Assembly (NCBI GenBank): GCA_046563655.1
Contig: CM102287.1
Coordinates: 3,596,001-3,660,000, forward strand
Reading direction: 5' to 3'
DNA from: Yuukianura sp. NJ FZ-2021
Taxonomy: Eukaryota
Length of the DNA: 64,000 nucleotides
Numbering within the stretch: position 1 is the stretch's first letter; every line of letters begins with the position of its first letter. Below are positions 19,359 through 63,860 of the stretch, one piece after another. The notes beneath the pieces are model-generated. The model was not told the origin of the DNA. It did not search any database and was given only the letters and a program-made list of their open reading frames with translations. The position numbers were made by a program, and so were the translations under genes.

Positions 19359-19463
19359 TTATTTTTTTACCTTATAAAGCGTCTCAAATTTCGCATCTTC
19401 ATAACTGCTGCTGAGGTATGAGGGAATATATTGCCCAATTCCGAACAACTCAAGGTTGATGTA
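19359..19463 (-). pseudogene. Separated 3' end (YINLELFGIGQY...KVKK*) of the host gene at 53719-57193
   Basis: Joins in frame through the TSD with the ORF beyond the 5' LTR (3401 + 100 nt = 1167 codons). Confidence 0.88.
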
Positions 19464-19945: not shown

Positions 19946-19957
19946 TATACCCCCATC
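19946..19957 (-). promoter_or_regulatory. Short polypurine-tract-like site (GATGGGGGTATA)
   Basis: G-run immediately upstream of the 3' LTR on the element strand. Confidence 0.6.
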
Positions 19958-21691: not shown

Positions 21692-22042
21692 GGCTAAAAT
21701 TAAAGTTAAACACACAAAACAATTACACCATGTAAACTACCTTAACATATTATGATACCAACATTATTCAAGATTATAATGGACGTATTTTTCCTGTTTT
21801 AGTAAATGTTTTGAAAATTTTTATAGTTGAGTTTTAAGTTTGATTGTGAAGTGTATTTTTGTTGAGGTTTTGTTTTTGGTTTCTTTTTCTATCCTATTGC
21901 TGTATTCTATCCACCTAATCCTATCATGAACTAAGTCTTCTACAGATATGAATATTATAATAGCAGTATCTACATGAGTTAACCTATTATGTATCTATAT
22001 GGAATAAAGAAAGTGTATTTGTAAAACCCTTCGAGTGCTCCG

Positions 22043-23503: not shown

Positions 23504-23567
23504 GGTTGATGTTTGTTGTTTGACGGTGAAACTAAAACTGGAATGTCGTAGGAAAGTACTGAAGGTT

Positions 23568-24578: not shown

Positions 24579-24670
24579 GTTGAAGTAAAGTCAAAACAGT
24601 AGAATTGTAGAGAGTGAGAGGTGAAAATGATGAAAAAGTGAAGAGAAATATGTAGTTGTTGTGTCGACAA

Positions 24671-27450: not shown

Positions 27451-27607
27451 GTTGTTACAATTTGGAAAAAACCTTGAAATCATTAAATTTATAACTAAGT
27501 TAATCCTAGTGTAATATGTCTTATGTTGATTATCGTTGAGATTAACTATATCTAACATAGAAATTCATTTGCTCTCACAAGCATACATAGCGCAGCAAGA
27601 ATAGTTA

Positions 27608-30600: not shown

Positions 30601-32611
30601 CAGATTCACGAATTTTCTCAAATGTTTTACGTAAGTCTATTAAATGATCAGCCCAAATATTACTCCCTACGACAAGATCATCAACGTAAATAATGTTATT
30701 GACGAGAAATGTGTCGCCAAGCGAATTCACGACACTTCGCGTAAATGAGCTAGGAGCTGTGGAGATACCGAACGGTAAGTATCGGAAGGCAAACGTGCCC
30801 TTCTGTGTCACAAACGTAAGGTAATGGATACTATCTTCACTAACTGGAACTGTCCAAAACCCTTTCGAAATGTCCATCAAGGAATAAAATCCGTGGCGCT
30901 GTTGTAACCAATCTAAAACAGCATCTACCGACAAAAGTGTGTACTGGATAGGCGCGATCATCGAATTTAGTTCTGAGAAATTAACGCAAAACCGATAACT
31001 TTTCTTTCCATCCGGTCCGACGTGGCCAGGAACTAAAACTGTTGGAGATACGTAATTACTGTTACAGGGTTGAATGCGCCTAAGTTTCAAAAGTTCGTCC
31101 ACTGTCTTATTCTCAAAATCCTGCATTTCTTGTGTCCGACGTGTTGGTTGGGCTCTAAATGTATGTGAGTTTGCTCGTAATACGACATGATGGACGTATG
31201 ATTTCATTTGACCAATTTCTTTTCTGAACGAGAATACATCGGGAAACTCCTTTAAAAGTTCTTTTAACTCCTGTTGTTGTTGTAAACTTAACTCGGGATT
31301 AATACGCGCCAATATTTTATCAACGTGTTCTTTCATCAAATGTGGTGGTAAATCGGAGGTTTTAAATGTAGGTAATGTTTCATCGATCTCAAACGTTTCT
31401 GATTCGTTACATCTCTCAAGATGTGGATCATTAATATGTATTAAGTTAGGTTGTTGTGTCTCGTTTTCGTCACTGGAAAGGAAGACGTCTTTCCAGCACT
31501 CGTCTGAACGAAGGCCTTTCGTGTCAGAAAAGGTTCCATCACTGTGACCAAAGTGATCTTCCCGGGGAACCAATGTCTCTAATATTGATGCTCTGTCTAC
31601 TGATGTGTTAATTGATGTGTTCATGTCAACCTTTTGATTTACTTCCTCAGGCCTCTGAACCTGTATTATATTTTCTGATGGCTGATTCAAAAGAGGGACA
31701 GCTGCGATTGAATTTGAAACAACGTTAATAATTGAAACGTTATCCTCATTACTCGATAAGTCTGCCAAGCTGAGTTGGGCTTGAGAGTCAAATATGTCAT
31801 GGGGACAACAGTCGGTCTTGTTGAAGTCAAGATCCTGAATACGTAAATTCTTGGGAGTATTTACCCTCAACTCAGTCCCCGTCGAGACCAAATTAGAGTC
31901 CGGTGAACTTACATGTTCTGAAAGTACGTGCACGATTTCGTCCTCTTTTTGTTTAATGGGTTGGGACAGTGTATGATTAGTCTCGGAAGTCATGAGTGTA
32001 AAAATTTTACAACTCATTTGTAATTTCTCATCATCTATGGGTATCATCTGAATTTTAGTATTTCTCCAGTCAATGATATGTCTTTGAAAATCAATCACCA
32101 CACCTTGATTATGCAGAAAATCATTTCCTAATAATACTTGTAAAGAAAAATTCGCTACCACCACCATTTTGTGAACGATACGTTGATTTGCGATTTGAAT
32201 ATGGACCATGGACACTCCTAAGGATGGTGTTGCCGTATTCCCAATGCCTTTAAGTGTAATTTGCCTGTCAGGTTGTAAAATATTGTTTGGTTTTACGAAC
32301 TTGTCATGAATAACTGATGTTTCTGCACCCGTATCTAACAAAAAATCTGTTTTATGTTGATTTACGTAACCACTAACTTTTAAAAGTCCATTCATCCCAA
32401 TATTACAACTAATGAAATCCTCCCGAGTTAAATCTATGTTGAAAGCATTGATTGAAGGATGTAGATGTGGATTCGTATTGTGATTTATAAAGCAAATGCA
32501 GGATTCAGAGAGTTGACCAATGGATTGACCGGGGTCGCTTGGGTGGTAGGGCGCCCAACTGTCTGCGGAAGCTGAGGATTGGTCATGCCCCCCTTCCGCT
32601 GCTCGTTTTTT
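27608..32611 (-). CDS. pol: Pol polyprotein (PR-RT-RNaseH-IN plus C-terminal extension), Ty3/gypsy type
   Basis: LLDTGA; RFCVNF, LPFG, YVDD; TDAS...ELLAVV; HHCC zinc finger, DITGP / TDNG / SERIH; frame open from 32620. Confidence 0.96.
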   Translation of the reverse strand, partial: KKRAAEGGHDQSSASADSWAPYHPSDPGQSIGQLSESCICFINHNTNPHLHPSINAFNIDLTREDFISCNIGMNGLLKVSGYVNQHKTDFLLDTGAETSVIHDKFVKPNNILQPDRQITLKGIGNTATPSLGVSMVHIQIANQRIVHKMVVVANFSLQVLLGNDFLHNQGVVIDFQRHIIDWRNTKIQMIPIDDEKLQMSCKIFTLMTSETNHTLSQPIKQKEDEIVHVLSEHVSSPDSNLVSTGTELRVNTPKNLRIQDLDFNKTDCCPHDIFDSQAQLSLADLSSNEDNVSIINVVSNSIAAVPLLNQPSENIIQVQRPEEVNQKVDMNTSINTSVDRASILETLVPREDHFGHSDGTFSDTKGLRSDECWKDVFLSSDENETQQPNLIHINDPHLERCNESETFEIDETLPTFKTSDLPPHLMKEHVDKILARINPELSLQQQQELKELLKEFPDVFSFRKEIGQMKSYVHHVVLRANSHTFRAQPTRRTQEMQDFENKTVDELLKLRRIQPCNSNYVSPTVLVPGHVGPDGKKSYRFCVNFSELNSMIAPIQYTLLSVDAVLDWLQQRHGFYSLMDISKGFWTVPVSEDSIHYLTFVTQKGTFAFRYLPFGISTAPSSFTRSVVNSLGDTFLVNNIIYVDDLVVGSNIWADHLIDLRKTFEKIRESGIKLSIHKCYFGYFEIPLLGMLVNREGIKQNPEKLQAIQQIPYPTTAKKLQRLLGSFNWFRRSVPNFSTITQPLYQLLRKDTVFKLTDFHKQKIDEIKTILSSPPLLHWFDRTRETRLYTDASAFGVGGALLQVTADNLEVPVAYHSSLLKGRQLQFPVFMKELLAVVTSCTVFHTYLSDIHFTIITDSLALVQAKNALSPSKRWNNDFTRWSVIMMGFDYEWKFRRGHNMELPDLLSRDPADVDTNEEENISTRFIFLTTEELEDKGEWVKQENVYDWKSIQLADAQCTQIKAAWANNDLHTRARYIIKDGILYDMRLGHSRIYVPDLYRKVILREVHDSFLSGHSGFSKSYARLSRLYAWPSQKRDLLNHIQECDSCNENKRHYGKVPGMMGEIPVGNYPMEICASDITGPFVASNGYKYIINVVCLLTRYVVLAPLKTITSEDISKFWEEEVFLIYSAPKIIYTDNGSNYASKFLKSFTAMFNTRIRHVTFYCKTGNSISERIHSMCHSIIRNYVNEKHNNWSKYVRMMNFCINSTPLKILNHHCPYSLLFHRQPNFPYAFQVEIPNELLQQKKQTFQELWSQTRSAIAKQQLKTKEKANKHRMHVEYSIGDLVRLTYPRTGERGHTTKWIAYYFGCYKVIEKIGPDIYKLECLTMGRTFKTHVRRMRLIRETEDEDIESFEMMVEPDHFADDLHFLDQIIDYIYDIKEWGSHATILPQSTLPVEFYVLKARVTEEHLSDANILEICLQHQIYDVILLNPVKTPIFKFHKSNNNQILVTDPEGIFIHQIHNPLTLKKYIKLKENLLSMKVLIIGDGWEECFISLAILSSIQLMMHASIYGTIMHVLTQSKHKTRILSFLKTENKIFQQEAALTGIMSKWEQADTSSPINHKQAVTGSNIPLAEETARDPGSAAKVPVTSETTPHPVSAPNVPVTVETAPNPASAGNITHTDALAPNHPSVTKTSDRTDTLPLVESKRPIRNRKPPSWLKYDDFR

Positions 32612-34074
32612 TGTTGCAATCTACATGTACTATCGCTGTGACCGGTAGATCGGTGCAACGAACACCACTCGTTACTTTGTCGGACAGGCGGAGATGGTTG
32701 TTGGGGTTTTTGGCGAAAACACGTCGCGTCTGAATGCGTATTGGTATTATGGAAGGAGCAAAACTGTTGACGTGATTGGTTTGGGGTGACGCTGGGACAG
32801 TTTGCTGCGAAATGAGACTCTGAGTTACATCGAAAACAGCGGCGACCATTCGGACAAGCCGCAGCAATATGTTGGTCTGAGTTACAGAGAAAACAGTTAC
32901 CATTGTTCCGCTGGGATCTGGGTGGGCCAGAAAATCCACCTCGCTGCCCTCCCCTTGCGCGCATTGGTTTACTATATCCTCCAACTCGTGTGTTCACACC
33001 AAAATGTTCAGCGGTTGTATAATCGGGCAGAATGCGTTCCATTTTGGGTTGTTTAGGTACAGATTCGGTAGTTTGTTGAGTAAGATACGTTTGCATTTGT
33101 TCCATGACCTTATTACAACGTTCCATATTCTCTGCCTGATCGGCCAAGATGGAAGTGGCTTGTGTCATTAAATTTACCTCCTTCTGATGTAAAAGTATCT
33201 CGTTAGTTTCTTCAATGGAACGAACTGCTTTAAGAAAATCAGCGATCGTTTCAGGCTTTTGAACCCCTAGCGCTGTTAAATTAGACGGGCGGAGATTACG
33301 TATCAACCACCGAACCTGTTTTCCCTCACTCATTCCGGGTTCCATTAATCGTAACAAATTCGTAAGTTCATACGTATATTGTGTCGCTGACTCGTTAAGC
33401 AACTGTTTGCGATTAATTACTTTTTGTTCGGCTGTAATAGTGTTGGTTTCACCAAAAGCTTTGATTAACTCCTCTTTCAAATTACCATATTGAACCAAAA
33501 AGGGTTCTTCTGCTGGTAGTAATTCTTTCATAGAATCCAAATATGACAAAAGCCAAGCCTCCGCAGTGTCCGTTAAATTGTTACTCAAAATAACCGCGTA
33601 GCTTTGTTCACTAATGCCGTTAGCCGCTGCAGCCATTTCAAATTTAGTCAAAAAGCGTTCAACATCTTCGGATTTTTTTCCGGCAAAAGTTGGAATTTTA
33701 ACTTTATAGTAATTTTTAGCTGTGTGAGTTCCCTGAATCGGAATAAATCCTGTGTTTGAAGCTTGAGTACGCTTAGTTACTTGCGTATTTACTGTAGGGT
33801 AGTAGGGAGTATACATGATCCCGTCGTCGTCAGAATCTGATGCGTTCAAGGGAATCTGAGGTTTGGTTGGGGGTAAGTTTCCGGAGGCGCCTGGAATTGC
33901 CTTCGGATTGGAGTATGGCGGAGGGATGTTGGGTTTGGGGTATCGAACTGGATTTTTAGGCATGGGTGTAGGAAGGCGGGTGACGGGTAGTGGTGGGGCT
34001 TGAGGAATAGTGGGAGTTGGTAAATTGGTTTTATCTAGTAACTTATCTTGCTGGCTTGTATTGAGTTTGTCCAT
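32485..34074 (-). CDS. gag: Gag (529 aa) with Pro-rich N-terminus, capsid domain and four zinc knuckles
   Basis: IPTFAG...VERFL...AEAWL...RKQ..NES; two CX2CX4HX4C and two CX2HX4HX4C motifs. Confidence 0.93.
   Translation of the reverse strand: MDKLNTSQQDKLLDKTNLPTPTIPQAPPLPVTRLPTPMPKNPVRYPKPNIPPPYSNPKAIPGASGNLPPTKPQIPLNASDSDDDGIMYTPYYPTVNTQVTKRTQASNTGFIPIQGTHTAKNYYKVKIPTFAGKKSEDVERFLTKFEMAAAANGISEQSYAVILSNNLTDTAEAWLLSYLDSMKELLPAEEPFLVQYGNLKEELIKAFGETNTITAEQKVINRKQLLNESATQYTYELTNLLRLMEPGMSEGKQVRWLIRNLRPSNLTALGVQKPETIADFLKAVRSIEETNEILLHQKEVNLMTQATSILADQAENMERCNKVMEQMQTYLTQQTTESVPKQPKMERILPDYTTAEHFGVNTRVGGYSKPMRARGGQRGGFSGPPRSQRNNGNCFLCNSDQHIAAACPNGRRCFRCNSESHFAANCPSVTPNQSRQQFCSFHNTNTHSDATCFRQKPQQPSPPVRQSNEWCSLHRSTGHSDSTCRLQQKNEQRKGGMTNPQLPQTVGRPTTQATPVNPLVNSLNPAFAL
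32565..32611 (-). promoter_or_regulatory. -1 programmed ribosomal frameshift signal (gag-pol)
   Basis: A_AAA_AAC in the gag frame at 32611-32605, 5-nt spacer, stem GCGGAAG/CTTCCGC; pol lies in the -1 frame and opens 9 nt upstream. Confidence 0.85.
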
Positions 34075-35043
34075 TGCAATGTAGAGGCATTAGGAATAAT
34101 AATATAAAGTAAAATTGTATTACCAATTCCGTAATAACAAAGAAAAGAGGCTTTGGTTTCACCACAAAGACGTTGTACTTAGTTATTCACAAAGGATTAG
34201 TGATGGTGGATTGTTACGAACCACTAGCACTAATGCTGTTGAATTTATTGAGAACGACTGTTAACGAAAGAGTTCTGGAACGCTTCACAAGTTAAGCTAA
34301 AACAAATTTAGTGATACTAAAATTGGTGTGAAGGATTAGGGATGAGGAGAAGTGATGATGTCTGGTGAGAAGCCAAAATATGACTGAGGAGGTAGAAGTG
34401 GTGGTTACAGATAGTTATTACTTTAATTATGATGAGAATTTCCTTGGGGTATATCCTCAGCCAAGGAAATTAATAAAACTATGGGGGTGTTCATGAGATG
34501 TATGAGTGGTGACCTTGGGAGGCTCAAAACTCCCATAGAACTATGGCTGTAAATAAAAGCTGAATCCCGGATGTGATGTGTTTTACTTTGAAAGTGACCA
34601 CAGCGGAAAACCCCACTCAACCGTGCATTAAGATTGTTTGCTGTTTTTAATTAAGAGTCATAAATCTATCATATCCACTTTGTACCTACTTACAAACATA
34701 ATTACCAGAAGTACATAAGCAAATTGTAACATAATAATAACGTAGAGAAAAAGAAAAATCGATGTAAATTATCTTATTACAATAGTATATAGAGACATCA
34801 AAGTACGTAAATTGCTTAAAAGTAGAGTAATGTTAATCTCCACATTTACTGAATAAAATAACTAAAATATGCAAGAACATTGTCGAAAAGAGCTGTTGTT
34901 GACGTAACCGAAGCAAAGACTTACTACTCAGTGTACCAAACTGTTTGACAAAAACGAAATACCTATGCCAATCTAAAGTAGCGACTTTGCTGCCCTAAGC
35001 TGAATCTAAATGCGATGTGAAACTATCCTGATTCGCATGGATG

Positions 35044-36408
35044 TTATAATTTGTATGTGATGAACTTCCGTGGTTGGGTACCAAGGAATCGGTTTTTGAG
35101 GGTAAGATTTGGTTTATTGGAGGAATCCGTGTTACTGATATGCTCGACTCCACCAATATAAATTGATTCAGTAATACTGTTCAAATTTTGACGTGGTCTA
35201 CGGGACGAAGGATGTTTATATGGGTGATACCCATGTGATTGCAGAAAAGAGAAGTCCGATAACCTGCCATGAGCCTCTGAGTAGTTAATGGCTGATCGAA
35301 CTTGGTCAGGATTAATAGCAATGGATGAGATGCTATTCGACCATACCCCTCCTTTAATCAAGATACCTGTCTGATGAGTGTTGTGTACTTGATCATGAGC
35401 ATGGGAACACAAAGCATTCCCATCTTCTATAAATTTGCCAAGAGTTGTTGTGGTGCAAATAAAATTGCAAGCATATGTCAAATCGGCAGTTTTGAACGCT
35501 GGATTCGTAATCACCGGAAAGGCATAGGAATGGTCGCCAGTGGAATGTTGCAGTGCTGTGCACCATCCCGTTTCGTCTGTGATAGAGTAGCCTAATTTCC
35601 TACCGTCCATGAAGTTTTTCACCACTGGAAAGTATGCTATCAATTCGTGCCAGTCCTCTAGTTGATGTAATGGAAGCCGGAAGGCAATGTGTTTTCTTAT
35701 CTCAAGATCAGAAAAGTATTCCTTGATGTGATCAAACTGTATCCGATAAAAAGCTTTAAATGCTAAGGACGTGCTCTTTACTGTGTTCATTGATGTTTGT
35801 GTCCATCCGAGCTTGGTGTAAAAATACATGCAATCAAGAAATGGATTATACCAAAAAGTATCGCAGTGCATCGAAGCAAACGAACAACCGCAATTGTTCC
35901 TGAGGTCAAACCAAACCTGGCTAACGTCATCGAATTTTTCTGTATCAATTAATGCTGTAAATGCGATATGAGTCGAAGTGATAAAGATAGCAACAACCAC
36001 GTCCTCCCGGTGTTGCATGCCCACGTATGCTATGTTTTGATTGGCAACAACAGTGAGTTGTTCCTGAAGTGTGGATGACAGAGGACAAATACGGTTGGGT
36101 TGAAACGTGGGTTCAGTTTCGGATTTATAAAAATGATTGCGTAACTGTAAGGATGCCAGTAATTCCGGTAGAGCTATGAGTTGCTGGTGCTGGAAAAACC
36201 AACTGTAGAAATCCTTTTCCATGAATTGTTGAAAGTTCAATTGTGTGTTGAGTTTGAATTGTAGCGGGATGTGTTTATCATAGACGTCGGCTGGTGGCAT
36301 GATCGATGGAAATTTAATTGCCGATTCTCGTATTCTCGTGGTTCCTTCTTGCCACATAGGGCTCCCCCATCCGTCCGATATCTCCACGAGTTCAATGGTT
36401 TCTGCCAT
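35044..36408 (-). CDS. Unknown accessory protein A1 (about 454 aa), paralog of A2
   Basis: Long intact ORF sharing LASLQLRNHF, FWYNPF, SLAFKAFY, TGWCT..Q...GDH.YAFPV and ICTTT with 37167-38498. Confidence 0.85.
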   Translation of the reverse strand: MAETIELVEISDGWGSPMWQEGTTRIRESAIKFPSIMPPADVYDKHIPLQFKLNTQLNFQQFMEKDFYSWFFQHQQLIALPELLASLQLRNHFYKSETEPTFQPNRICPLSSTLQEQLTVVANQNIAYVGMQHREDVVVAIFITSTHIAFTALIDTEKFDDVSQVWFDLRNNCGCSFASMHCDTFWYNPFLDCMYFYTKLGWTQTSMNTVKSTSLAFKAFYRIQFDHIKEYFSDLEIRKHIAFRLPLHQLEDWHELIAYFPVVKNFMDGRKLGYSITDETGWCTALQHSTGDHSYAFPVITNPAFKTADLTYACNFICTTTTLGKFIEDGNALCSHAHDQVHNTHQTGILIKGGVWSNSISSIAINPDQVRSAINYSEAHGRLSDFSFLQSHGYHPYKHPSSRRPRQNLNSITESIYIGGVEHISNTDSSNKPNLTLKNRFLGTQPRKFITYKL

Positions 36409-37166
36409 TCTGGAGGAAGCAAAAACAATCAATAGTCGAAAATCGACAATTCCGATGAAAAAATGTTGAAGTAATGATGGAGAAGGTGAATGACATCAAG
36501 AAGGAACAGAAGGATGTAGGAAGGAGCGGAAGTACTCATGTGCCTGGTGCCAATGCTAACCTTGCTGGTTGTATGTTTGAATTTGTGTCCTACGATTTAT
36601 GGAATAATTTATAAGCCAAAGTGTGTATGGATACTACAAGTGGCATGTCGGGAGTTGCGAAACGAGAATGGAAAATTCCCGCTGTGATTCCGAATTTGTG
36701 ACCAAGAGAAAATGGTGATCACAGAGGAAGAGAGCTGCCGTTCATGTTACGAAAAACATGTCAGTCAAAAACCCAAAAAAAATGAATAAAGCGGAGGTGG
36801 AGTCCCAAAAACAAAACAAAATCGTTCCACATTTCTTGAATAGCAACCTTATGGTATTCAGCACACCGGATGCCTAACGGTGTGAGTAACTTAAAGTACA
36901 TAAGTTTATTCAAAAGGTGAATCTAGTTGTCAGAATTATGATGGCAATTTGAAACGAATTTACTCAACATGTGACGTGATAAGTCATAACAGCTAACGTA
37001 AACTATAAAGAAACAATTGGATGAGAAACGCAAGGTCCAAAAATTATATTCACTATCCGATGACCGAAGGCACAATTTGTCTACTTAAAGTTTTGGGTAT
37101 AGTTACAAAGATATCTACAGTAGAACATAAAAGTGACAAACAACGCTCCAGCGATCGATCGAACCG

Positions 37167-38498
37167 TTACTGAAACAAATAGCGACGTTTAATTATAGAT
37201 TTATGATCTCCGCGCCTTTCGGTGCGGAGATTATGACTGGAACCTTCGAAATACAGTGTTTCAATACGTTCATGTAACCGATGTCTAGGTCGTTTAAATA
37301 ACGGTTGAATAGGAAGTTCCCAGCCGTCCTTAGCTAATTTCGACAATTCCATCACCCCACAAGTATAGTCAGACCAAGATTGAATAGCCTGAAGTTGTTC
37401 ATAATTAATTCGTAGCTGACATATGCGATTAAGTGCACGATTGGGGGTAAATATCCCTATGTGATCTAAATTGTGTACGACTCCATGAGCTTGCGAGCAC
37501 CCTGCCCCGTGTTCCTCAATATATTTGCCAAACCGTGTTGTAGTGCAGATCGGATGACAAGTATAGAAGCGATCAGCTGTGGCGAACATAGGATTTGTTG
37601 GAACAGGAAACGCGTATGTGTGATCCCCTGCATGTCCTTGAAGTGGTGTACACCAACCCGTATAATCATCGAATGCTGTAGGTTTGTTTTTGAGTTGCCT
37701 ATACTCGCGAATAAGTGGATGATAAGCTATAATTTCGTGGCAAAACCTCAATTTTTGAACAGGTAAAATGAATGCAAACTGCTTGGTATGTTCGAGGAGA
37801 TAGAAATATTCATAAATGTCTTTAAATTGTTGAGTGTAGAACGCTTTAAATGCTAAACTGTCCGGCCTAACATTTCGCATATTGAGTTGAAGAGGCTGCC
37901 CTCCCTCCTGTTGGGCATACATGGTATCCGTAAATGGGTTATACCAGAAAAAACGAGTAGGTAGTGAAAGAAAAGAGCATCCAACCTGTGCTTTCAGATC
38001 AATCCAAACCTGGTTAACCCGTTCGGGTAGCGCGATACGTGAGCAGCTAACTCTAGCCATCTGATTGTGTGTAATTACAAGAGCTGATTGGTAACCAGTA
38101 AATTTCTTAAAGCCAATGTATAACAAATCTGGATTGTCGATTAGTGATTGGAGTTGGGAGAGTAGAGTAGGTGGAATGGCAATTAGTCTCCCAAGTTTAA
38201 ATGTAGACTGGTTGAGTTCTTCCATAAAGTGATTACGCAGTTGAAGACTCGCCAAAACTTCTCCAAGAACTAGTACGGTCGAATTATGGAGAAACCATGT
38301 GAAAAATTCCATAAGTTTGAGTGGCTGCAGAGTTATCGTAGAGCTCAACCGGACCGTTGTTGGGCATCGTTGGTCGATAGGACGATATCCGACACGTCCA
38401 GCTCCAACGGCTTCTAAGACATCTGTCACATCCCTTGATCGATCCCATTGGTTATGTGGAATGTCAGACGTCCAAAGAACTGAAAACTGTTCCGCCAT
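37167..38498 (-). CDS. Unknown accessory protein A2 (443 aa), paralog of A1
   Basis: Intact ORF, colinear with A1 along most of its length. Confidence 0.85.
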   Translation of the reverse strand: MAEQFSVLWTSDIPHNQWDRSRDVTDVLEAVGAGRVGYRPIDQRCPTTVRLSSTITLQPLKLMEFFTWFLHNSTVLVLGEVLASLQLRNHFMEELNQSTFKLGRLIAIPPTLLSQLQSLIDNPDLLYIGFKKFTGYQSALVITHNQMARVSCSRIALPERVNQVWIDLKAQVGCSFLSLPTRFFWYNPFTDTMYAQQEGGQPLQLNMRNVRPDSLAFKAFYTQQFKDIYEYFYLLEHTKQFAFILPVQKLRFCHEIIAYHPLIREYRQLKNKPTAFDDYTGWCTPLQGHAGDHTYAFPVPTNPMFATADRFYTCHPICTTTRFGKYIEEHGAGCSQAHGVVHNLDHIGIFTPNRALNRICQLRINYEQLQAIQSWSDYTCGVMELSKLAKDGWELPIQPLFKRPRHRLHERIETLYFEGSSHNLRTERRGDHKSIIKRRYLFQ

Positions 38499-39049
38499 GT
38501 CCTATTTGAATTACGATTGCCGTTAATTAAACTCGGGCTGTGTATTAAGTGATATCGTGAGGAAAGTCGGACTGTAGGTTGTCTAACACATTCAAGATGG
38601 AATGAAGGTTTGTTAGGTAGAGAAGGTGAAATGGATGACTCCATCACACCATTAGGTATTAGCATCTAAAGTTTATGATGACCTAAACCTGAACCGATGG
38701 AAAGAGGTTGTCTCCTGGGCGACATAGGAAAAATGTACCCCAATTGGAGGAAATCACAGATGACTGAAACGAGTCGTGTAAGTAATATTTTCGTGAGATA
38801 AGAGACTCGGCTGGATTCACGAGTGATGACTTTATTCCATGCTATTTAAACCTGAGACGCACTAAATTGTGATGTTGAAGCTTGTCACGTTCATTAGACG
38901 TCTGGTGAACGACATGTGAACTGAGGATGAAAACAATCGTTATCCAATCTAATCTCCTCCAGAATCCTCCGACCAACACATAAAAATCGAATTGGAAACT
39001 GACCAGAAATTATATTAGTTGAGAGCAAAAATAAAATATTGTCGCTGGT

Positions 39050-40220
39050 TGCAACTTGTCACCGAGTAAAAGTGGATAACCGCCATGGCCCGCCGAGTGT
39101 GCGACAGAAAGTTAAGCGACATCCATTATTTATAGAAACCAATTTGAGAAGTATATTTTCCATTACTCCGAACTGTGAGAAACGAAAAACCAGAGACAAG
39201 AGTATCTCCCCCAAAAGAAAGAATATGGCTGCAACAGAGGAGGTTCTGTTTATATTCAGTTCCACCCTAACGTTATAACTTGGTAATTATAAGAAAAATT
39301 GGCCAATATCCCTCCAGATCAGGTAAGGTTCCAAGTGGTGGTTTTGGATATAAGTAGTGAGATAATAATAACAATAGTATTACACAGTATTTGAGGATGG
39401 GTTTGTAAGTGTGATTTGAATAGAGAGAGAGAAAAAAAAACACCAGTGCTGTTTTCCCGCCAAAAAAAAAAATAAAAGTGTCTTGTGTGCTGCTAATAAT
39501 CAGATATGTCAGAGACGCCAAATAGGCGAAACGAGTTGTGTAAAAATTAGAATATCTCGGGAACGCCACCGTACAGATTCTCCAAATTTCAATTGTAGAA
39601 ACCTAACTGGATTGGAAGTACGGTGGTAAAGTGTTTATAATACCTTACTACGATTTGTAGAGTTGTTTACTGAAAAAGTCTGCAGCACCAACGGAATAAG
39701 TACCACAGTTAGTAGTCTGGCCAATATATACAGTCCCCTCCTGTTTGCAATTGGCTGTTTATGAAATAATAATTACCGAAGAAATGTCCACATGAGTACA
39801 ATAACAGTTAAAAAGTGATCAGATCAACGTTTCGTTGTGAATAAAATGTTTTGAGTATAATGTAGAGCTAATATCAACAAAAGAATGAATCGCCCATACT
39901 TGTGGGAATTGAAATTAGAAATGACGGATGTTATTGGATGTGGTATTCGATGTAATATGAGTAACAATTTTCAGATGATGTTCCTTACTATTAATGAGGA
40001 ATATGCTACCGACGCTAACCGCCAAAACTTAAGCACCCGTGAGGGAAGAGTGTGCCTAATAGTCGGAGAAGTGAGATGTGTAAGCTTGATGGCAATATGA
40101 CGTTAAAAGTCGAATATTTCAAAAACTAAGCCGTACAACCGGTTGAAAATTTACCAGAGGCTAGTTAAATATGTAACTGTTGAAGGTATGAAAAAATATT
40201 ACCCTATTTCCACGATAGCC
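39050..40220 (-). pseudogene. Possible decayed F-box/LRR paralog
   Basis: Fragments (TSPTIRHTL; FAYLASLTYLIISSTQDTF) weakly echo the 611-aa protein; 39810-40215 is a diverged copy of 43330-43705. Confidence 0.3.
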
Positions 40221-40828: not shown

Positions 40829-42664
40829 TTAATCTAAGACACACAATCTTTTATTAGCTATTTCATAAAAATCATAGGAAGTTTGGATAGGACGCTTTAA
40901 TGGTTTAGTTTTAGTCTGTAGCATGGCCAGGCGATAAATGTCCAGAGTACTCAAAGCAGGAGGTAAGTGATTCAATTCTACAGTTGCGAAAGGGAGTTGT
41001 TTCTGGATAGCGCGAGCTGTGCTTAGTGTAAGTTGACCGCAAAAGTTAGTTTTGAAAAAAGAAAGTTTTAATTTTTGGGTGAGGTGGTAAAGTGCGCGAT
41101 CAGAAAATCCATAGCCGGTAAGGGTTAAACTAGTTAGGCTACGACAAGCGACCACCCCCCACATAATGCTGGCGTCAGTTAAGAACTTGGAACCCAAAGT
41201 AAGTTTGGATAACGATTTTAAATGTCCCAGAAATGGGGATGTACGAATAAGATCCGCCGGAAGGGTTGAATAAATTGCGTCAACTTTACGTACATGTGAC
41301 CACCAACCAGTAATAACTCCTGTAATTCCGTCATCCGTAAATTGTCCGTCCATCGCAACAAGTTCGGTTAAAGATGTCAAATTTTCAAAGATGGAGTACA
41401 TTGCTGGATTTGATAAAAACTTAATGTCGAATTTCTTCAATTGAGGGAAAAGAAAACTAATTTTCTCTATAACAGAATAATTGGCTGCGAAATCCGGGTC
41501 AAACTGGTCTATCGTGAAGGAGGATAATGGGGAATACGACATTCCACTTTCCATATCTACATCCTTAAACATGGGTTCTAAGTCTCCAGTTTTAAGGAGG
41601 GTAAGAGTATGGAGTCGCGGTAATTGTAAGACAAAAGTCAGTGATTCCTTAAAGGAAGTGAGGGTTAAAGAGGTCAGGTGTATTAGTTGTGAGAAAACTT
41701 GGAAGCGGGAGCAGGGTGGAAGTGAATAATTCTGGAAGAAATGGTCGGCGAATGTGAAATCGAGTGACAGAATTTTTAGTGTGTTCGTAACTTGTAATAT
41801 AAAGTCTTGCAATTCCCGAGGATGTTGATGCAAACCGATGGTCCATGTGAAGCGTTCAAGCGGGTACCCTTTAGAGGTTAAATCTGCCAGATTTGTCCAT
41901 TGCTCGAGTGGGAAATCCAAATTTTTGAGATGAGGAAGTGAAGGACTGTTTTCACCAGTAAGAATATAAATAAGAGGTTGGAGATTGCATGGCCGTTTGT
42001 TTTCATAGTCCATGGTGTAGTTGATAGATTCGGACGAATTGAGTTGATATGGCGTACACGAGATGGTGTGTAGATTCGGTGTAGCCGCCAGGAGGTACCG
42101 GAAGAAGGCGTCTGTTCGTTGTTGTGATTCGTCGGAGCAATATGAGGTGTAAGCAATGTGTAACCGTAGGGTCTCCAAGTTAGGTAGAAAATTCCGATGA
42201 TACGCCGCATTGGTTTCTGTCCAGTTTGGGGGGTTGGTAAAAGTTGATTCGAGTTGTGCTATATGTAACACAAGTCGTCGCAGATGAGGAGTTGAACGGG
42301 ACAAAAAATGTCGTATCGTAGCCGAAGCGGTCCAGGAAGAGTGCACCAATTCAAGAGAAACGATAGAGTTGCCGTAAATTTCAAAGAAGTACAGTATCAG
42401 TGGATTATTCCTTTTTAAAGATTCGCCCAGTTTGATGTGTACGGGTTGCGTCGGTGAATGTGTCTTCATGAATAAACGAACCGCTTTCGTATTCTTCAAA
42501 AATTGGATGTACTGTCGTTGGTGAAACGTGGAAGTGACTTCCTCATTCCAGACGCCATGCACCAATCGGCAAATTTGGAGCGTAGAAATTGTCAGAAACG
42601 AAAATACGTGTTCCATTACATGAGACTGGAGCAAGGGATGATGCTTACGGCTCGGAACTTCCAT
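40829..42664 (-). CDS. F-box / leucine-rich-repeat protein (611 aa)
   Basis: N-terminal PLLQSHVMEHVFSFL...LQICRLVHGVWN F-box; repeated LxxLxL units; FTDDGITG, LTDASI. Confidence 0.85.
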   Translation of the reverse strand: MEVPSRKHHPLLQSHVMEHVFSFLTISTLQICRLVHGVWNEEVTSTFHQRQYIQFLKNTKAVRLFMKTHSPTQPVHIKLGESLKRNNPLILYFFEIYGNSIVSLELVHSSWTASATIRHFLSRSTPHLRRLVLHIAQLESTFTNPPNWTETNAAYHRNFLPNLETLRLHIAYTSYCSDESQQRTDAFFRYLLAATPNLHTISCTPYQLNSSESINYTMDYENKRPCNLQPLIYILTGENSPSLPHLKNLDFPLEQWTNLADLTSKGYPLERFTWTIGLHQHPRELQDFILQVTNTLKILSLDFTFADHFFQNYSLPPCSRFQVFSQLIHLTSLTLTSFKESLTFVLQLPRLHTLTLLKTGDLEPMFKDVDMESGMSYSPLSSFTIDQFDPDFAANYSVIEKISFLFPQLKKFDIKFLSNPAMYSIFENLTSLTELVAMDGQFTDDGITGVITGWWSHVRKVDAIYSTLPADLIRTSPFLGHLKSLSKLTLGSKFLTDASIMWGVVACRSLTSLTLTGYGFSDRALYHLTQKLKLSFFKTNFCGQLTLSTARAIQKQLPFATVELNHLPPALSTLDIYRLAMLQTKTKPLKRPIQTSYDFYEIANKRLCVLD

Positions 42665-43908
42665 ATTGATTTCACTGAAAAGGAGAGAGGAACCTAGTTC
42701 TTACTTGTTCTGTTTGGAAGTAGTGACAGTTGAAGAATCATGAAAGGAATCCCCAATGGCTTTGCTGAAAGTTTCCTTTCCGTAAAGTGGGAAATGAAGA
42801 TGGCAGTAGGTTTCAAGAATTCAGACTCGACAGAGGAAGGTTAAATAGTGACTTTGAAGTTAAAGTAAGTCGTATAATGCGGAAAAATAAAAAGTCGAGG
42901 ATAGGACTAAAGATGACGCTGTGCTGTGACAGATATGTCCAAGAAATAAAATGACGGCAGTTACTTGGATGAATTTTGATCGCAGTTTCCATATCAGATT
43001 AACCAAGGTTCAAGTTGGGAGAAAATAGAACTACGGTTGTTGATATAAGGATAATGATTGGGCAAGTCAAATCAGCGTGTCGTAAGAAATGATTTCCGAA
43101 AAAATTGGATAGTGAAGAGTTTCGATCATGCTGCCGTGATATTTCGGCCTGTTCTCATGAAGCGTCTGTGACTCGATGTCGCTTTGAGAATATACAAAAT
43201 CGGCCCGTGTGACCTATAAAGTATCTCCCCAGTGTGTAGTTCGTTGTTGTAGAAAGGATTTGTATGTAAATGTGAAGACGACAACCTAATTAACTATAGG
43301 AACCGCATCGCCCTAATGACACTAACAGTGAAAAAGTGATCAGGTCGGAACTGCGTTGTTGCAAAAATATTTTGAGTATAACGCAAGCAAAACACACGAA
43401 CATTGCAGACGCCTTCAGGGAATATATAATGTACTAAGATGTGAGGAGATAAATCAGTGCTAAATGAAGTTGGCTATTGTGAATGGATAAAATGCACTGA
43501 AATTAGCTGCCAAAATACTTATGCTGAAGTGTTAGGGTAGTCTGCCTAATGGTCAGATAAGTTCGGTTTCCGCCACTGGTGAATAGATTGTGTTAAAACT
43601 CAAATAACTCCAAAACTAAGCCGTACAGCTTGCTGTAATTTTACCCAAAGTTAGTTGAAAGTATAATAGTTAAGTTCATGAAAAAATATTGATACATTTC
43701 CGTGACCCCATACGTCATATGGACGTTCTGGTGATACGGCCCGAAGCTGAGAGGAGAGTGGTCCGTGATTCTGTGGTTTAGGTAGTCTTAAGGGACGCTG
43801 TCGTGCCGACGCAACAAAGGGAGGAAGACTGATTTTAATTGTGCTTGTGCGTTTGTGTATTTGAGTATAATTCTAGGGATAAATTCGTGTTAATAATTAT
43901 TTGGAAAT

Positions 43909-44781
43909 ATGACTGCTCGAAAGTCTTTTGTCGTAAGTTAAACATAATTCTATAAGGAATCTATAAGAATGATGGTGGATGATAATTGTATATGGTGTTA
44001 TGTAATAGGAACATGAATTGGGGTTCACTTACAAGCGAGAGGATCGTTTAGCAAAGCAACGCTTAACTGAATTATCGCAATCGGGATTTGTGGCTACAAA
44101 TGGGCTACACTACCGTGGTCAGATAATTAACTGGGGTCGTGCTGATGCTATTGATGCTACCTATTGCTACTTTGATCCTGATATCCATAGTCTTGGGCTA
44201 AAGGCACGACGTGAACTAGAAGAAGGGGAATTCCTATTTTTGTATGCTGGCGAGGTCATTGATTATGACCGAAAATCAAACTTGAGTCCTGGTCAGCTGG
44301 ATAGTCAATTTTCGAGCTAATTTTAGTGAATGCTGTTTATAATATGTACTTTGTGTTAATAGAGCAGTCGAGTTACGTGATGTCATTGGACAACCGAGTT
44401 CAAGAAGACCGAGACCGACTCTTTGTCGACGCCACCCATACTGGCAACATGTCTCGTTTCCTTAATCACTCATGTCATCCCGCCCATCAGAATGTAATTT
44501 TTATTAAGGGTACTAGAATGGGGAGATGTGTCGTCAAAGTAGAAACTACTAAGGACATAGCGAAAGGAGACACGCTGTTGGTCGCCTACTCCAGTCCGGA
44601 GGACTTGATGGCGGAGCGGTATAAGGGGATTATAAAATGTCGGTGTAGTGGGGTCATACATCATCTTGTTGGTGTAACGGCCTGTAATGATGTACGAGTC
44701 GTAAAGAGGGACGCTAAAGGTCGAATTTCTAACAAAACGCAGCGAGGCCCTAATGGTCAATTCATCCCTAATAAAAAGTGA
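43909..44781 (+). CDS. SET-domain lysine methyltransferase (241 aa; exons 43909-43932, 44009-44291, 44363-44781)
   Basis: GLKARRELEEGEFLFLYAGEVI, VDATHTGNMSRFLNHSCHP, DIAKGDTLLVAY, post-SET-like CRC...C; two phase-compatible GT-AG introns. Confidence 0.85.
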
Positions 44782-47709
44782 ATAATCGTAGTGATAACTA
44801 GCGACTGGGTTTAGCTATTGTAACTTAGTTGTAATTAGGTTATAAGAGTTAAGTTTGCATAAGGTGCAATATTGTAACCCCGTGTAGGGAAAATGCTAAC
44901 TATGTCAATGTAAAATGTAGTAATGTACAACTTGTTAACTGACTTTGTATTCTAAAAGGATGACTGACAATGACTAAAAAAAAAAAAACTGCATAAAATA
45001 TGTGTTCATAAGTGAAAGAAAATGAGAACTAGGGTATGAAGGTGTCAACCTTTAATAAATGTTAAGACGTTGCCGGAGGATCGGTTTTTGTGAGGCTAAG
45101 GGTCTAATGATGGATGAGGCTTGTTAAATATCCGGTAATGCTAATTCTTATTAGTAGTATAGTCCTCAACTTGTGAGTAGGAATATGAGGGGTTAAAAAT
45201 ATTGTAAAAGTAAAATTAAAAATAAACTTGTAATTCCCGCGTGTTCAGAGGAAGGTTACAAATGCTTGATAACTTCGTATGTATGTGTTGTAATTCGATG
45301 TGTTATATAGAGCGAGGTGCTGTCTGGTTGTTTTAATTTTCATTGTGTGTATTTCTATTATAACCTAAAAAAAAACTGAATTGAGTTGGAGAGAGTTAAG
45401 AGGGTATGAACTGTTACAATCACTTTTGACTGTATTAGAAAATAAAAGATGGAGGAAACTAAAATTGTTTTGGTGAAGATAGTGACATCGTACGTTATTC
45501 TATAAATTCGCCGTCATGAGTGACCTAGTTGCTAACCTAACCGATGCTAGCCGACCTTTTAATCCTATCCCACCGTACTTTCTAATCTGGTAAAGTTTCA
45601 GTGAATTTGTCAATCGTGAGAAAAGATGTTGTTGAATAAAAAATGGTGTAAGGTAGGAAGGCAATCAATTTATAATGACAGATTTTTAGAAGAAATCGTT
45701 TCCATAATAAAAGAGAAAAACCAATAAAGAGAAAAATGTAGGGATACAAGTGTATAAGGAAGGAACAGACTCAAGGATGAAACAATAAGAGTAGTTCTGT
45801 ACCGTGTTGGTATTTAACCAAAAGAGTTCGTAGTTGGCTGGAGAGTTATTGCGAATGGCGGTGTCCTAGGCCGTATTGGGATCTTCGGCTTTTCTGGTAG
45901 TAATGCTGATGCGTGTCTGGGTGTTGTGCTAAGTTGTAATTCTGATTTGTTTATGCGTTGGGGAAGGGAGATTGGGCATAGTTTTAATCGACTTCGAATG
46001 TATGTCAAAAGGTGCGTAAAAAAAAATACGAAAATGGTCGTGTGTTACATTAAAGGAAGGGAACAAATCTTACAGCCCCATTCTCCTTGTCCGCGTGACC
46101 TCGGAATTGAAGGAGAAACTGACCACCCTGTGGATCCCTATTAGCATTACTTCTTGTGATTGATGTGACCCACTTGGTGCGAAATTCTGCGTGTAGTGAT
46201 AAGAGTGTGGGCAAAAACCTGTTTCTTAAACAATGAGAGGGGGTGGGGGGGGGGTGAATGGGAACGAAAATCTCGTTCTGCGTGTAACCTCCAAGGCTTG
46301 GTGGGGAGATTTTATAGAAAGGGGAAGACCATTTTGAGTTGGCCAATTGTATTTGCAATTGTTTAAATTTGAATGGTAATGTTTGGATTTTTTATTTTTG
46401 CAAACAGCTAAAATGAAATTGGAAACTGAAAATGATTAAATAGCTTTTGTCTTGTGTTGGGATGGAAGGTTGGTTTGAAATGATTCGTGTTAGAACAAGA
46501 TGACCCACCCGAAAATGAAAGTTACCAATTTCCTTCATGTCCCAGAATTTACTAATGACCTCGATCGTCGCAGCTTAGCAACAAAACTTTCGCCTTGGGA
46601 TTGGTAGGAAATGAGAAACTGGTTATTGTAAAAAGGAGTGCGTGAGAAGGGAGGTGCAAAAAAAAATGAAAATGCAAAGCGCGTGGAGTGCCTCAGCCTA
46701 CTCTTTGGCCCACTCCAAGTCATTGTTGTGTCCTGTTGTTCCTTATTGCGAAAATTTCACTTTTCAGCTTTATGTTTGTTGAAGGACGGTGAGTTTTTTA
46801 TTGCGAAACTCGTTGAGGGTTAGTGGTACCTTGGGTTCTCGTTTCCATTGAACTCATGAAAGTATAAAAGCTACCTAAGGAAGATCACTTTCGCTGTTAC
46901 TGCTCTTGTCGCAAAGAATCAAACCAAGCAGGATTTAGTATTTGTACTAGATTCCAATTCCAAATCCAGCTCACACGCAGCGTTGCTAGACACTAGGAGT
47001 TGCCGACTCCCGAATTTTTACATTGTAAGATTAGTGGAGCGAAAATTGCCCCCACGGGTGAAACTTTAAGGAAGGAACGGTAATGTATATTGTATAGCTT
47101 GTCAAATTCATGTAAAGCATCATATTTAGCGTAAATTTGTTCTCGAGTGATAATTTAAAATAGGTCATGCACATAAAAAAAAACGAAAACAGGAAAGAAA
47201 AAGGTTAAGTTTAATGTCATGTAAATTTCTAGGTGTTGTCTGAGAATTGCTTGGCTGCGTTGCTGTGGTGCGTTATTGTGACCGGGGAATTCGTGTTGTT
47301 CCAATTGAAATTCCGCCATAATTGTCAAGGTAATTGGAATTTGGATATATCAACTAATTAAAATTAATTAATGACATCATAATAAAAAAAATATAAGTTC
47401 GTGCGAATGACGCCTATAGTCCGTTAGGAGTAGTAACTTGAAGTTAGAGTAATTGCGTCTGTTAATGATTGTGGTGGTTTGAAATTTGGGAGTTCGAATA
47501 ATCATTGAGACTCTAATTTATACATCTAACTTCCTCATTGCGCTTTTTGTGGAATTCTGTATAGGATGGCAAGCTAAAAACTTAAATGGGAAATCGCAAT
47601 TGGTCGCTTTCATAGTGTGGTTGGAAAATAGGGGTTGGTTGTGTTTAGTTTTTATCCAACGAGGTGGAGAACGAGTTTCATCTGCTTAAAATTTTGATAA
47701 TCCTAGAAT

Positions 47710-62867: not shown

Positions 62868-63860
62868 TTAGTCTTCTGGAGACGCACGTCTACGACGTGC
62901 TGAAGAAGACTATTGATACGACTTTGTCTGTCTGTCTGTCTGTCCGTTCGCTTTTTTAGTATCTTTTGCGCTGAAACATTAGCCCTATCGCAGTCGGGGG
63001 GTCATGTATGGCTCAAGTGTTTTCTCTACCTCTACATTGCACTCAAAGTGTTAAGTTAACAACGTCAAAGTATGCGGCTGCTTCGCGTTGCAGTTTCTTA
63101 AGTCCTCAAAATTTCTGTGTTAGGTCTGCATTGCACTCAAAATATATTTAAACAACGAAGTTTTGATCTTCTCATTTTCTGATATTATGTTTAGGTACGT
63201 TGTTAAATTAAGACTAATTAGAGGGTAGAAAATCCGGCTTAAATTCGTAACATGCAAACAGTGATTGGCAGGGTTCAAATTTGCTTTTGCAACAATTTTG
63301 ATTATAAACAAGGGATATTCGAGTTTATAACTTATGCACTTAATTTAACACATGGTGCATTTATTTGAACCGATTTTGATTTTATAGAAGCTATATTCGA
63401 TCCCTACTCCACAACGTTCAATTTTGTGCATGTTGAACACTTATTGCACGAATGTAAAATTGTACAGTTATTTTGACGCTGGGTAATGGGCGTTGTTATT
63501 TCAAAATTTGTGCACACTGGAGAACAATAATTGAATGGCTTCGCGGAAAAAGGGGCAAACTGCAAATTGCAATTTGAGTTTCTACGGGCAACGAGTTGCG
63601 TATTGGCTTTTCTGCTGAAATCGGGCAGAAAAAACCGCTAAATCGGTCTGAAAAACCGTTTTTTCGCATGATTTTGTTTGTTTGAAAGCTGAAACAGAAA
63701 ACGTCAAAACGACGATTTTCAGTTTGCCCCTTTTTCCGCGAAGCCATTCAATTGTTCCGCGAAGCCATTCAATTGTCCACCAAATAATTTTGCTAACAGT
63801 TTGATGCAGAAATGTTGTGAACCAAAATAATTTTCAGGAGAGTGAAAACGGTTCAGGGCT
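62868..63860 (+). mobile_element. Second copy of the Helentron/DINE-1-like repeat
   Basis: Colinear with 17066-18140; (GTCT)n tract at about 62926. Confidence 0.55.
63529..63753. mobile_element. Small MITE (~225 bp) nested in the previous repeat
   Basis: 34-bp TIR AATTGAATGGCTTCGCGGAAAAAGGGGCAAACTG; the right end is partly duplicated at 63754-63774. Confidence 0.7.

Follow-up and report, generated by a model that had tools for sequence, protein, structure and literature searches.

The SET gene and its exon structure

The window analyzed here is a 64,000-nucleotide (nt) stretch of contig CM102287.1 from Yuukianura sp. NJ FZ-2021, and all coordinates are positions in this whole stretch. It holds a Ty3/gypsy-type long terminal repeat (LTR) retroelement on the minus strand (19464-53718; 34,255 bp, with an interior of 33.3 kb). 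Inside this element, on the plus strand, lies a gene (43909-44781) whose frame is intact over three exons and whose product contains a SET domain. Its status as element-borne methyltransferase cargo is well supported, and its product is predicted to be a stand-alone SET protein-lysine methyltransferase of a rare family. The features of the gene are the following.

43866-43873 (+): TATAAT-like box, read from the sequence, about 40 nt 5' of the ATG
43909-43932 (+): exon 1, eight codons, ATG ACT GCT CGA AAG TCT TTT GTC, encoding MTARKSFV
43933-44008 (+): intron 1, 76 nt, GTAAGT...TAATAG, with its 3' end TGTAATAG at 44008
44009-44291 (+): exon 2, N-terminal flank and N-terminal half of the SET domain (H-S-L-G-L-K, L-Y-A-G-E-V-I), with alternative ends at 44285 and 44303
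44292-44362 (+): intron 2, phase 1, 71 nt with the donor at 44291, 59 or 77 nt with the alternative donors
44363-44781 (+): exon 3, C-terminal half of the SET domain, variant post-SET and basic tail, with the stop codon at 44779-44781
44770-44775 (+): AATAAA, overlapping the last codons

The frame of exon 2, open for 103 codons from 44009, lacks a Met, and an in-frame TAG precedes it, so translation of the SET domain requires an upstream exon. The first-pass annotation had predicted a short ATG-bearing first exon; such an exon is needed, and 43909-43932 is the best candidate. All combinations of ATG, GT and AG that leave one frame open to the stop at 44781 were enumerated, and only the pair 43932/44009 gives intron 1 a consensus donor, the last codon of exon 1 (GTC) being followed directly by GTAAGT. 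The alternatives start either from an ATG at 43719, where the available donors are weak (GTG.., GTT.. or GTC..), or from ATGs within 43969-43992, where the intron would span 34-82 nt. The start codon at 43909 is the first ATG downstream of the TATAAT-like box and has an A at -3. The eight-codon exon proposed earlier is thus present as described, with its GTAAGT donor, and TARKS within MTARKSFV equals histone H3 residues 6-10. The TATAAT-like box may serve as a promoter and the AATAAA as a poly(A) signal.

The acceptor of intron 2 is at 44362/44363. With the donor at 44285, 44291 or 44303 the product has 239, 241 or 245 aa; the donor at 44291 (G, then GTCAGC) was preferred, and the product of ~241 aa was used throughout. 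The third frame, open over 44305-44781, forms a 158-aa exon 3 open reading frame (ORF) that holds the C-terminal half of the SET domain. Lys and Arg make up 9 of the 30 C-terminal residues of the product, a tail that may be nuclear or nucleic-acid-binding; a full-length relative described below (P0019) has a similar one.

The SET domain and the class of enzyme

Exon 3 matches the Pfam SET profile (PF00856) at E 3.6e-9 and 37.4 bits, against a cut-off of 22.4, over profile positions 38-104. Exon 2 gives a weak Protein Data Bank (PDB) match to the N-terminal part of the SET domain of MLL1/NSD2 (E 0.3). Three motif regions were located.

44455-44475 (+): R-F-L-N-H-S-C, cofactor and active-site motif of SET enzymes
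44566-44589 (+): G-D-T-L-L-V-A-Y, with Tyr at the catalytic position of E-L-x-F/Y-D-Y in an alignment of 11 SET proteins
44638-44685 (+): variant post-SET, C-x-C, an eight-residue insert with H-H, then G-x-x-x-C

The compact three-exon SET gene of the first-pass annotation is therefore borne out by its frame, the Pfam match, RFLNHSC, the Tyr and the post-SET-like cysteines. The SET alignment comprised the spliced product, P0019, the model from metagenome contig L001 and eight ordinary SET proteins; the row for a second contig, L002, was not used. In a 17-sequence alignment the N, H and C of NHSC and the catalytic-position Tyr are invariant. C-R-C lies at 44638-44646 and the third Cys inside G-V-T-A-C at 44671-44685. 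The C-x-C and one His are invariant across the four family members (the window protein and its relatives P0001, P0002 and P0019). The post-SET may be a variant zinc-binding motif, C-x-C-x5-6-H, and in the window protein three Cys and one His could form the zinc site.

The first-pass annotation had pointed to the histone H3 lysine 9 (H3K9) methyltransferases G9a and GLP, which automethylate an H3K9-like motif; the window protein is not an enzyme of the G9a/GLP or SUV39 type. Alignment revealed no Cys-rich pre-SET or AWS region, the 60-residue N-terminal flank holding one Cys in alignment with the similarly Cys-poor P0019, and no canonical post-SET C-x-C-x4-C was found in the window protein. Among the 60 of 104 PDB matches listed, solved structures from every SET subfamily score weakly and at much the same level (E ~5e-5 to 7e-3), with LegAS4 at 4.9e-5, SETD2 at 7e-5, MLL1 at 1.7e-4, SUV39H2 at 2.5e-4, NSD2 at 4e-4 and EHMT2 at 2.7e-3. 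Because a pre-SET is missing, the post-SET is non-canonical and the subfamilies match evenly, H3K9 specificity is not indicated. A SUV39/G9a-type enzyme was ruled out on the same two domain features and on the absence of a closer match to H3K9 enzymes. By its testable features, the window protein reads as a SET enzyme outside the G9a/SUV39 group.

Diverged copies and signs of selection on the gene

Copies of the gene were compared at 80% likeness in three DNA contig runs of one sample, in which the window's own sequence is also present. Two diverged contigs run collinear with the exons, and their identity is roughly 80-87%. One, of 2516 nt, follows the gene in four blocks (44001-44076, 44219-44285, 44352-44453 and 44692-44762) each with 9-18 differences; where a gap falls inside an exon it is of the same length and diverged, and the gap spanning intron 2 measures 74 versus 66 letters. 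The other, of 460 nt, reads ..GTAATAG and then G.., with a start of exon 2 that is diverged but equal in length (x-H-x-x-G-F-x). Both retain TAATAG/G at 44008/44009, so the acceptor of intron 1 is kept in two diverged copies.

For one copy 21 differences were listed, 16 within the gene and five, at 43124-43628, that were excluded. The 16 fall in 13 codons, eight with synonymous and five with conservative changes (K>R, V>F, R>Q twice and F>Y). This synonymous bias points to purifying selection on the predicted SET gene.

Up to 43678, a contig of 9.2 kb from this sample matches the window at 99% identity; beyond that point it continues into a diverged SET region, so element variants differ in their SET cassette. 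Contigs of the sample break at 43633-43678. This region looks like the boundary of a cassette exchange between element variants.

Relatives and the start of the protein

A search with exon 3 among 1.84 billion representatives returned 43 proteins at E <= 1e-3 and three at E <= 1e-10, the top match being 42% identical over 103 residues. Two of the proteins, P0001 and P0002, have family-specific motifs in common with the window protein, and P0003 is an ordinary plant ASHH-type SET protein, the ASHH type being the best named representative. P0019 (E 2.5e-4) is a full-length relative encoded by a single uninterrupted 227-residue ORF and matches Pfam SET over positions 1-104 (E 2.3e-14).

Among 600 candidate metagenome stretches, 246 encode a SET relative. 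The best 80 of the 246 were taken as metagenome relatives; contigs L001 (encoding P0001) and L002 (encoding P0002) were read, and the remaining 78 show 27-60% identity in short segments. None of these best 80 is the contig of P0019. A word-indexed search with the 158-aa exon 3 ORF gave five candidates, none of which scored; the same search with P0019 gave 162 candidates and itself as the sole match. In viral contigs, 201 pattern matches included no SET relative.

In L001 and L002, as in the window, a phase-1 intron splits the SET domain a few codons before the (Y/H)-V-M block. The upstream exon ORF of L001 matches window 44159-44275 at 48.7% identity over 39 aa (tblastn, E 9.5e-10), and L002 ends inside exon 2. 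At 360-480 of L002, P0002 has a 40-residue insert that partially repeats the motif before the catalytic Tyr; the insert could represent either an intron left unspliced or an internal duplication.

These relatives bear on where the protein starts. The first 33 residues of P0019 align with the window N-terminal flank, including the Val of the last codon of exon 1, at a score reached by 1 of 2000 shuffles. Its start Met falls within three residues of the window start (<=3), with the V-x-H...G-F-x-Y block aligned. In this sequence comparison, the P0019 alignment supports a protein start at about the exon 1 ATG. In L001 an ATG and 12 codons lead to GTAATG, and TTTCAG follows in phase 0 after a gap of 103 nt; this first-exon model is tentative, as the frame is open to the contig end with an internal Met, and the 5'-open exon of L001 has no significant likeness to the window N-terminal flank (shuffle fraction 0.78).

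The same evidence weighs on a different model of the 5' end, in which exon 1 is not the start and a trans-spliced leader, or a distant exon, joined at 44009 supplies the AUG. The product would then begin M-E-H-E-L-G-F and lack TARKS. Exon 2 starts in phase 0, so that a spliced leader with an AUG at its end would supply an in-frame start, and spliced leaders of several animal phyla are described as containing AUG and able to create ORFs (PMC9851317), which gives the model a precedent. Host introns are short, a ~90-nt intron being read through in a kinase ORF of the window, and the acceptor conserved in two diverged copies fits both models. On the other hand, a phase-0, ATG-started eight-codon frame with a perfect GTAAGT stands 76 nt upstream, an arrangement estimated to occur by chance in a few per cent of cases, and L001 shows the same pattern of ATG, 12 codons, GTAATG and TTTCAG in phase 0. 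The window has no leader RNA family (0 Rfam matches), a point of little weight. We consider a start supplied in this way unlikely, and retain exon 1 as the best candidate for the start of the gene.

The H3-like N-terminus

TARKS occupies residues 2-6 of the predicted product, and the core of the H3K9 region is described as ARKS (PMC2175347). The pattern ARK[ST] occurs four times in the 127,996 six-frame residues of the window, and TARKS once, at this site; ARK[ST] is found in 1 of 47 SET-related proteins (25,795 residues). The chance of the motif is ~1e-4 for the eight-residue exon and ~6e-3 for the protein as a whole, with no correction for its post hoc discovery. From its terminal position, this N-terminus would be expected to be exposed.

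Conservation of the motif in other copies had been set beforehand as a test. It fails for the distant relatives: the motif occurs in 0 of the 2 with N-terminal information, P0019 starting MNIVVH and the tentative L001 exon MAEKPK.... The check covered these two alone, and among copies the motif was seen in the window one alone.

The first-pass annotation had inferred a chromatin modifier or HP1 decoy that opposes silencing. On this reading TARKS would be a working H3K9 mimic: Lys5, methylated by the enzyme itself or by a host H3K9 methyltransferase, would bind HP1-type chromodomains, and the outcome would be either an enzyme tethered to heterochromatin, or HP1 titrated off the element and silencing thereby opposed. 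The placement of TARKS at the extreme N-terminus and its rarity in the window and in SET-related proteins speak for this, and the small residue (Thr) after Met should permit Met removal and leave a free tail. Precedents exist. G9a automethylates an ARKT sequence into an HP1 binding site, and ARKT/S peptides of H3, GLP and mAM are reported to be methylated equally well by G9a (PMC2175347); SETDB1 automethylation on H3K9-like motifs (10.1101/2025.10.22.683908) and a viral protein with an ARKS histone mimic (10.1101/2021.11.10.468057) have also been described. Against it stand the missing motif in P0019 and in the tentative first exon of L001, the lack in the window enzyme of the pre-SET and canonical post-SET of H3K9 enzymes, and the PDB matches listed, in which H3K36-, H3K4- and H3K9-type structures score about equally. 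The match is moreover one of five residues, noticed after the fact, in an exon whose use is predicted. TARKS itself is present in the sequence; a working mimic is an attractive hypothesis that we rate as improbable.

The host LTR element

The element that surrounds the SET gene has the following boundaries and core genes, given in the order of its own minus strand.

53719-53723 and 19459-19463: target-site duplication ATGTA
53237-53718 (-): 5' LTR, 482 nt, TG..CA
53218-53233 (-): primer-binding site TGGTGCCGAAAGACGG (TGGTGCC...), 3 nt inside the 5' LTR, complementary to the tRNA 3' end ...CACCA
32485-34089 (-): gag, Pfam Ty3_capsid and a zf-CCHC knuckle
27608-32620 (-): pol, protease, reverse transcriptase, RNase H and integrase
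24671-27564 (-): env region, two overlapping ORFs, the second matching a class III viral fusion glycoprotein
19946-19957 (-): purine-rich tract ..GATGGGGGTATA, adjoining the 3' LTR, weak as a polypurine tract
19464-19945 (-): 3' LTR, 482 nt, TG..CA

The SET gene therefore lies between 482-nt LTRs with a matching 5-bp target-site duplication, which confirms the earlier claim that it is retroelement-borne. The LTR pair agrees at 481 of 482 positions; the element is very young and recently inserted. In silico excision restores a minus-strand ORF by adding 34 codons, for a total of 1179. The primer-binding site is one that we take to be of the tRNA-Phe type. Pfam places RVP at pol residues 86-175, RVT_1 at 539-693, RNase H at 760-892 and the integrase at 999-1163, and pol is only ~30% identical to the nearest proteins found. 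The second env ORF matches Monjiviricetes_fusion (E 6.7e-11) and herpes gB (E 3.7e-4) in Pfam. The gene order gag, pol, env, together with paired LTRs, target-site duplication and primer-binding site, defines an env-bearing Ty3/gypsy (Metaviridae-type) element, and no nested LTR pair was found inside it.

The strand composition of the element extends to the SET region. The 33.3-kb interior has a GC skew of +0.149, whereas the two flanks are close to zero (+0.001 and +0.003). Regardless of gene orientation, the SET gene (+0.17) and its non-coding surroundings (+0.24 to +0.26) are skewed likewise. This strand bias, common to the SET region and the element, assigns the gene to the element, with which it has probably long replicated.

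This bears on the possibility that the gene is a passenger, a host SET gene captured by the element or present in the DNA from which it formed, and carried without service or in decay. The introns point to DNA of genomic origin and not to a retro-copy, LTR elements are described as capturing genes (PMC7264820), and the function of the SET gene is a prediction. A passenger is, however, hard to reconcile with a frame intact over three exons and intact catalytic motifs, with at least two diverged copies that keep exon lengths and whose changes, listed for one of them, are mostly synonymous, and with the strand bias of the SET region. Nor did the 1.84 billion representatives include a host-like close relative, the best being 42% identical over 103 residues. 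We regard a passenger as very unlikely. The intact frame, the catalytic motifs and the paralogs with mostly synonymous changes were counted instead for a functional accessory gene.

Other observations concern the element's 3' part and insertion site. Five ORFs lie 3' of pol (20639-27564, minus strand), and the fusion-protein ORF overlaps the preceding one by 79 nt in another frame. A W-T-L-G-containing ectodomain is common to three of the post-pol ORFs, with E 6e-11 and 8e-8 for the two pairs compared. Three of the env-like ORFs have no Pfam match at E up to 10. The element seems to carry several paralogous glycoprotein genes. The disrupted 1179-codon ORF consists of 53694-57158 and 19361-19463, both on the minus strand; its function is unassigned, with weak Pfam hints, and with the insertion it stops after nine LTR-derived codons.

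The cargo block and its antisense introns

Between the primer-binding site and gag lies a cargo block of ~19 kb with at least six genes on both strands. The SET gene is on the plus strand, antisense to the minus-strand element. The other cargo genes are listed here.

40829-42700 (-): F-box/leucine-rich repeat (LRR) gene, 623 codons, divergent from the SET gene
47707-48642 and 48811-49698 (+): orphan paralog pair, antisense to the element, 38% identical, open frames
35044-36495 and 37167-38501 (-): orphan paralog pair, in element sense, 38% identical, open frames

The F-box/LRR ORF owes its assignment to ESM Atlas features: the score is 0.97, and 22 of 30 hits belong to the same F-box/F-box-like family set as the best one. 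Its Pfam F-box-like and LRR matches are weak (E 0.5-1). The assignment suggests that its product may be an element-encoded adaptor for host SCF ubiquitin ligases. The orphan pairs, each in tandem, are related at E 6e-65 and 9e-90, and the second is rich in conserved Cys and His. None of the four orphan ORFs has a Pfam match at E up to 10 or an Atlas match, the ORF at 47710-48639 having no usable ESM Atlas match.

Among the six cargo genes, introns are seen in the SET gene only; the other five, gag and pol are single long frames. LTR elements replicate through sense-strand RNA. The SET introns read GT..AG on the antisense strand only, and would therefore be unspliced in the genomic RNA and retained through retrotransposition. 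A simple rule follows: antisense cargo genes can retain introns, since the genomic RNA never shows them as introns.

A 110-nt repeat, 72% alike, is found at 43592-43701 and 40102-40211, on either side of the F-box gene. A tRNA-Ile called by ARAGORN at 34195-34294 was taken as a false positive; Rfam had 0 matches in the window.

Other features of the window

Outside the element, an intact-looking PIF/Harbinger-type DDE transposase ORF lies at 14454-16055 (-; DDE_Tnp_4, E 1.6e-19). A unit of ~1.03 kb occurs twice in tandem at 11537-13464 (89-95% alike), and a dispersed repeat with a (TGTC/CGTC)n run is found on either side of the element, at 17066-17504 and 62868-63299 (80-89% alike). At 7384-8004 (+), a tyrosine-kinase exon pair spans a ~90-nt read-through intron (PK_Tyr_Ser-Thr, E 9.1e-57) and indicates an animal host with short introns.

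Discussion

Taken together, the SET gene is probably a real and functional accessory gene of a recently inserted, env-bearing giant Ty3/gypsy element in an animal host. Under this reading, it would be transcribed from its own promoter in the 1.2-kb spacer that it has in common with the divergent F-box/LRR gene, and the transcript would be spliced twice and polyadenylated at the AATAAA overlapping the gene end. The protein would enter the nucleus and benefit the element by methylating a histone tail or some other chromatin protein, and the F-box adaptor may act alongside it by redirecting host ubiquitin ligases. Such action would resemble that of the accessory genes of complex retroviruses and of the SET proteins of some viruses and intracellular bacteria.

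Several points weigh against this reading. The substrate and the benefit to the element are pure inference. The gene region 43800-44950 was matched in three DNA contig runs of one sample and in no RNA run, and both splice junctions are predicted; the three candidate donors of intron 2 (44285, 44291 and 44303) are all weak GTC.. sites in phase 1. Within the domain, the first Gly of G-x-G is Ser in the window (H-S-L-G-L), against Q-L-G in L001 and G-L-G in P0019, and the non-canonical post-SET has its third Cys in the window copy only, this residue being absent from P0001, P0002 and P0019. The codon-change count comes from a partial list of differences rather than a full paralog sequence. Outside the sample, the family consists of three distant members (P0001, P0002 and P0019) on short metagenome contigs, and an element-borne status of these relatives would be conjecture.

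The closest functional parallels are of two kinds. Like G9a/GLP (EHMT2/EHMT1), the window protein is a SET enzyme with A-R-K-S/T near its N-terminus, and the G9a motif is reported to be automethylated and HP1-bound (PMC2175347). It differs in its size of ~241 aa, in having no ankyrin repeats and no Cys-rich pre-SET, and in its non-canonical post-SET; the EHMT2/EHMT1 matches in the PDB (E 2.7e-3 to 8e-3) are weaker than those of SETD2, MLL1 and LegAS4 among the matches listed. The motif is internal in G9a, whereas in the window protein, which is known from sequence alone, it stands at residues 2-6 of a predicted free tail. The second parallel is with small parasite-encoded SET enzymes thought to rewrite host chromatin, namely vSET of a chlorella virus and LegAS4/RomA of Legionella. 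LegAS4 (5czy) and its homologue 8sr6 are the best PDB matches among those listed (E ~5e-5), but identity to LegAS4 is limited to 67 residues, and the carriers of those enzymes are a DNA virus and a bacterium, whereas the window gene is on a retroelement. vSET has neither pre- nor post-SET and acts on H3K27 in dimeric form; its chains do not appear in the 60 PDB matches listed out of 104.

Among retroelements, planarian Burro offers the nearest likeness. It is described as a Ty3/gypsy-type element of >30 kb with a mononegavirus-like fusion env and with ubiquitination and apoptosis-control domains, its extras forming part of a ~4,900-aa ORF1 polyprotein and its internal region reaching up to 25 kb (PMC6431247). 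Compared by description only, the window element resembles Burro in size, type, fusion env and a ubiquitination-related extra. In contrast to Burro, its interior is 33.3 kb, gag and pol are separate, env follows pol, and stand-alone cargo genes on both strands precede gag. The available text of the Burro review (PMC6431247) nowhere uses the words 'SET domain'.

Antisense genes in retroelements have precedents as well. Antisense ORFs with their own internal promoter are described for maize Grande (gene23), rice RIRE2, Silene Retand and human T-cell leukemia virus type 1 (HBZ) (PMC7264820). According to the same source, the ORFs of the plant elements are found in the interval from pol to the 3' LTR, and none contains a recognised domain (PMC7264820). 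The SET gene, in contrast, is placed 5' of gag, is interrupted by two introns and codes for a recognisable enzyme. The spliced form of HBZ also has a very short first coding exon.

The acquisition of a modifying enzyme by an LTR element is likewise not without parallel. Orchid Ty3/gypsy elements are described as having gained an N6-methyladenosine (m6A) RNA demethylase domain (PMC9289625), and they thus resemble the window element as LTR retroelements with an acquired enzyme that edits an epigenetic or epitranscriptomic mark. The orchid case is an added domain in a plant (PMC9289625), whereas SET is a separate antisense, intron-bearing gene in an animal. Bdelloid LTR elements are described as capturing other enzymes (PMC5408684). 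In the available text of a survey of animal env-bearing gypsy elements (PMC13524379), the words methyltransferase, accessory, antisense and F-box are absent. Among open-access papers and bioRxiv preprints, no transposable element carrying a SET gene was found.

To our knowledge, parasite-encoded histone-type methyltransferases have so far come from a few DNA viruses and intracellular bacteria. The SET enzyme of the window adds to these known kinds a case on an LTR retroelement, where the cargo gene is antisense and bears introns. With this locus come a rare SET family, marked by a variant post-SET motif, and an element whose 33.3-kb interior exceeds the 'up to 25 kb' described for Burro (PMC6431247). 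With a protein of 241 aa and a tail of eight residues, it provides an easily testable candidate.

A bolder reading makes the enzyme both writer and bait: its methylated H3-like tail would capture HP1-type readers and, with the F-box adaptor, form an anti-silencing gene set. We think this distinctly unlikely. If true, it would mean that heterochromatin machinery is diverted from the provirus, or that the element is steered to chosen chromatin. Hosts silence retroelements largely via H3K9 methylation and HP1, and an element with a histone-type methyltransferase of its own would represent a parasite-encoded counter-measure or a device for self-regulation.

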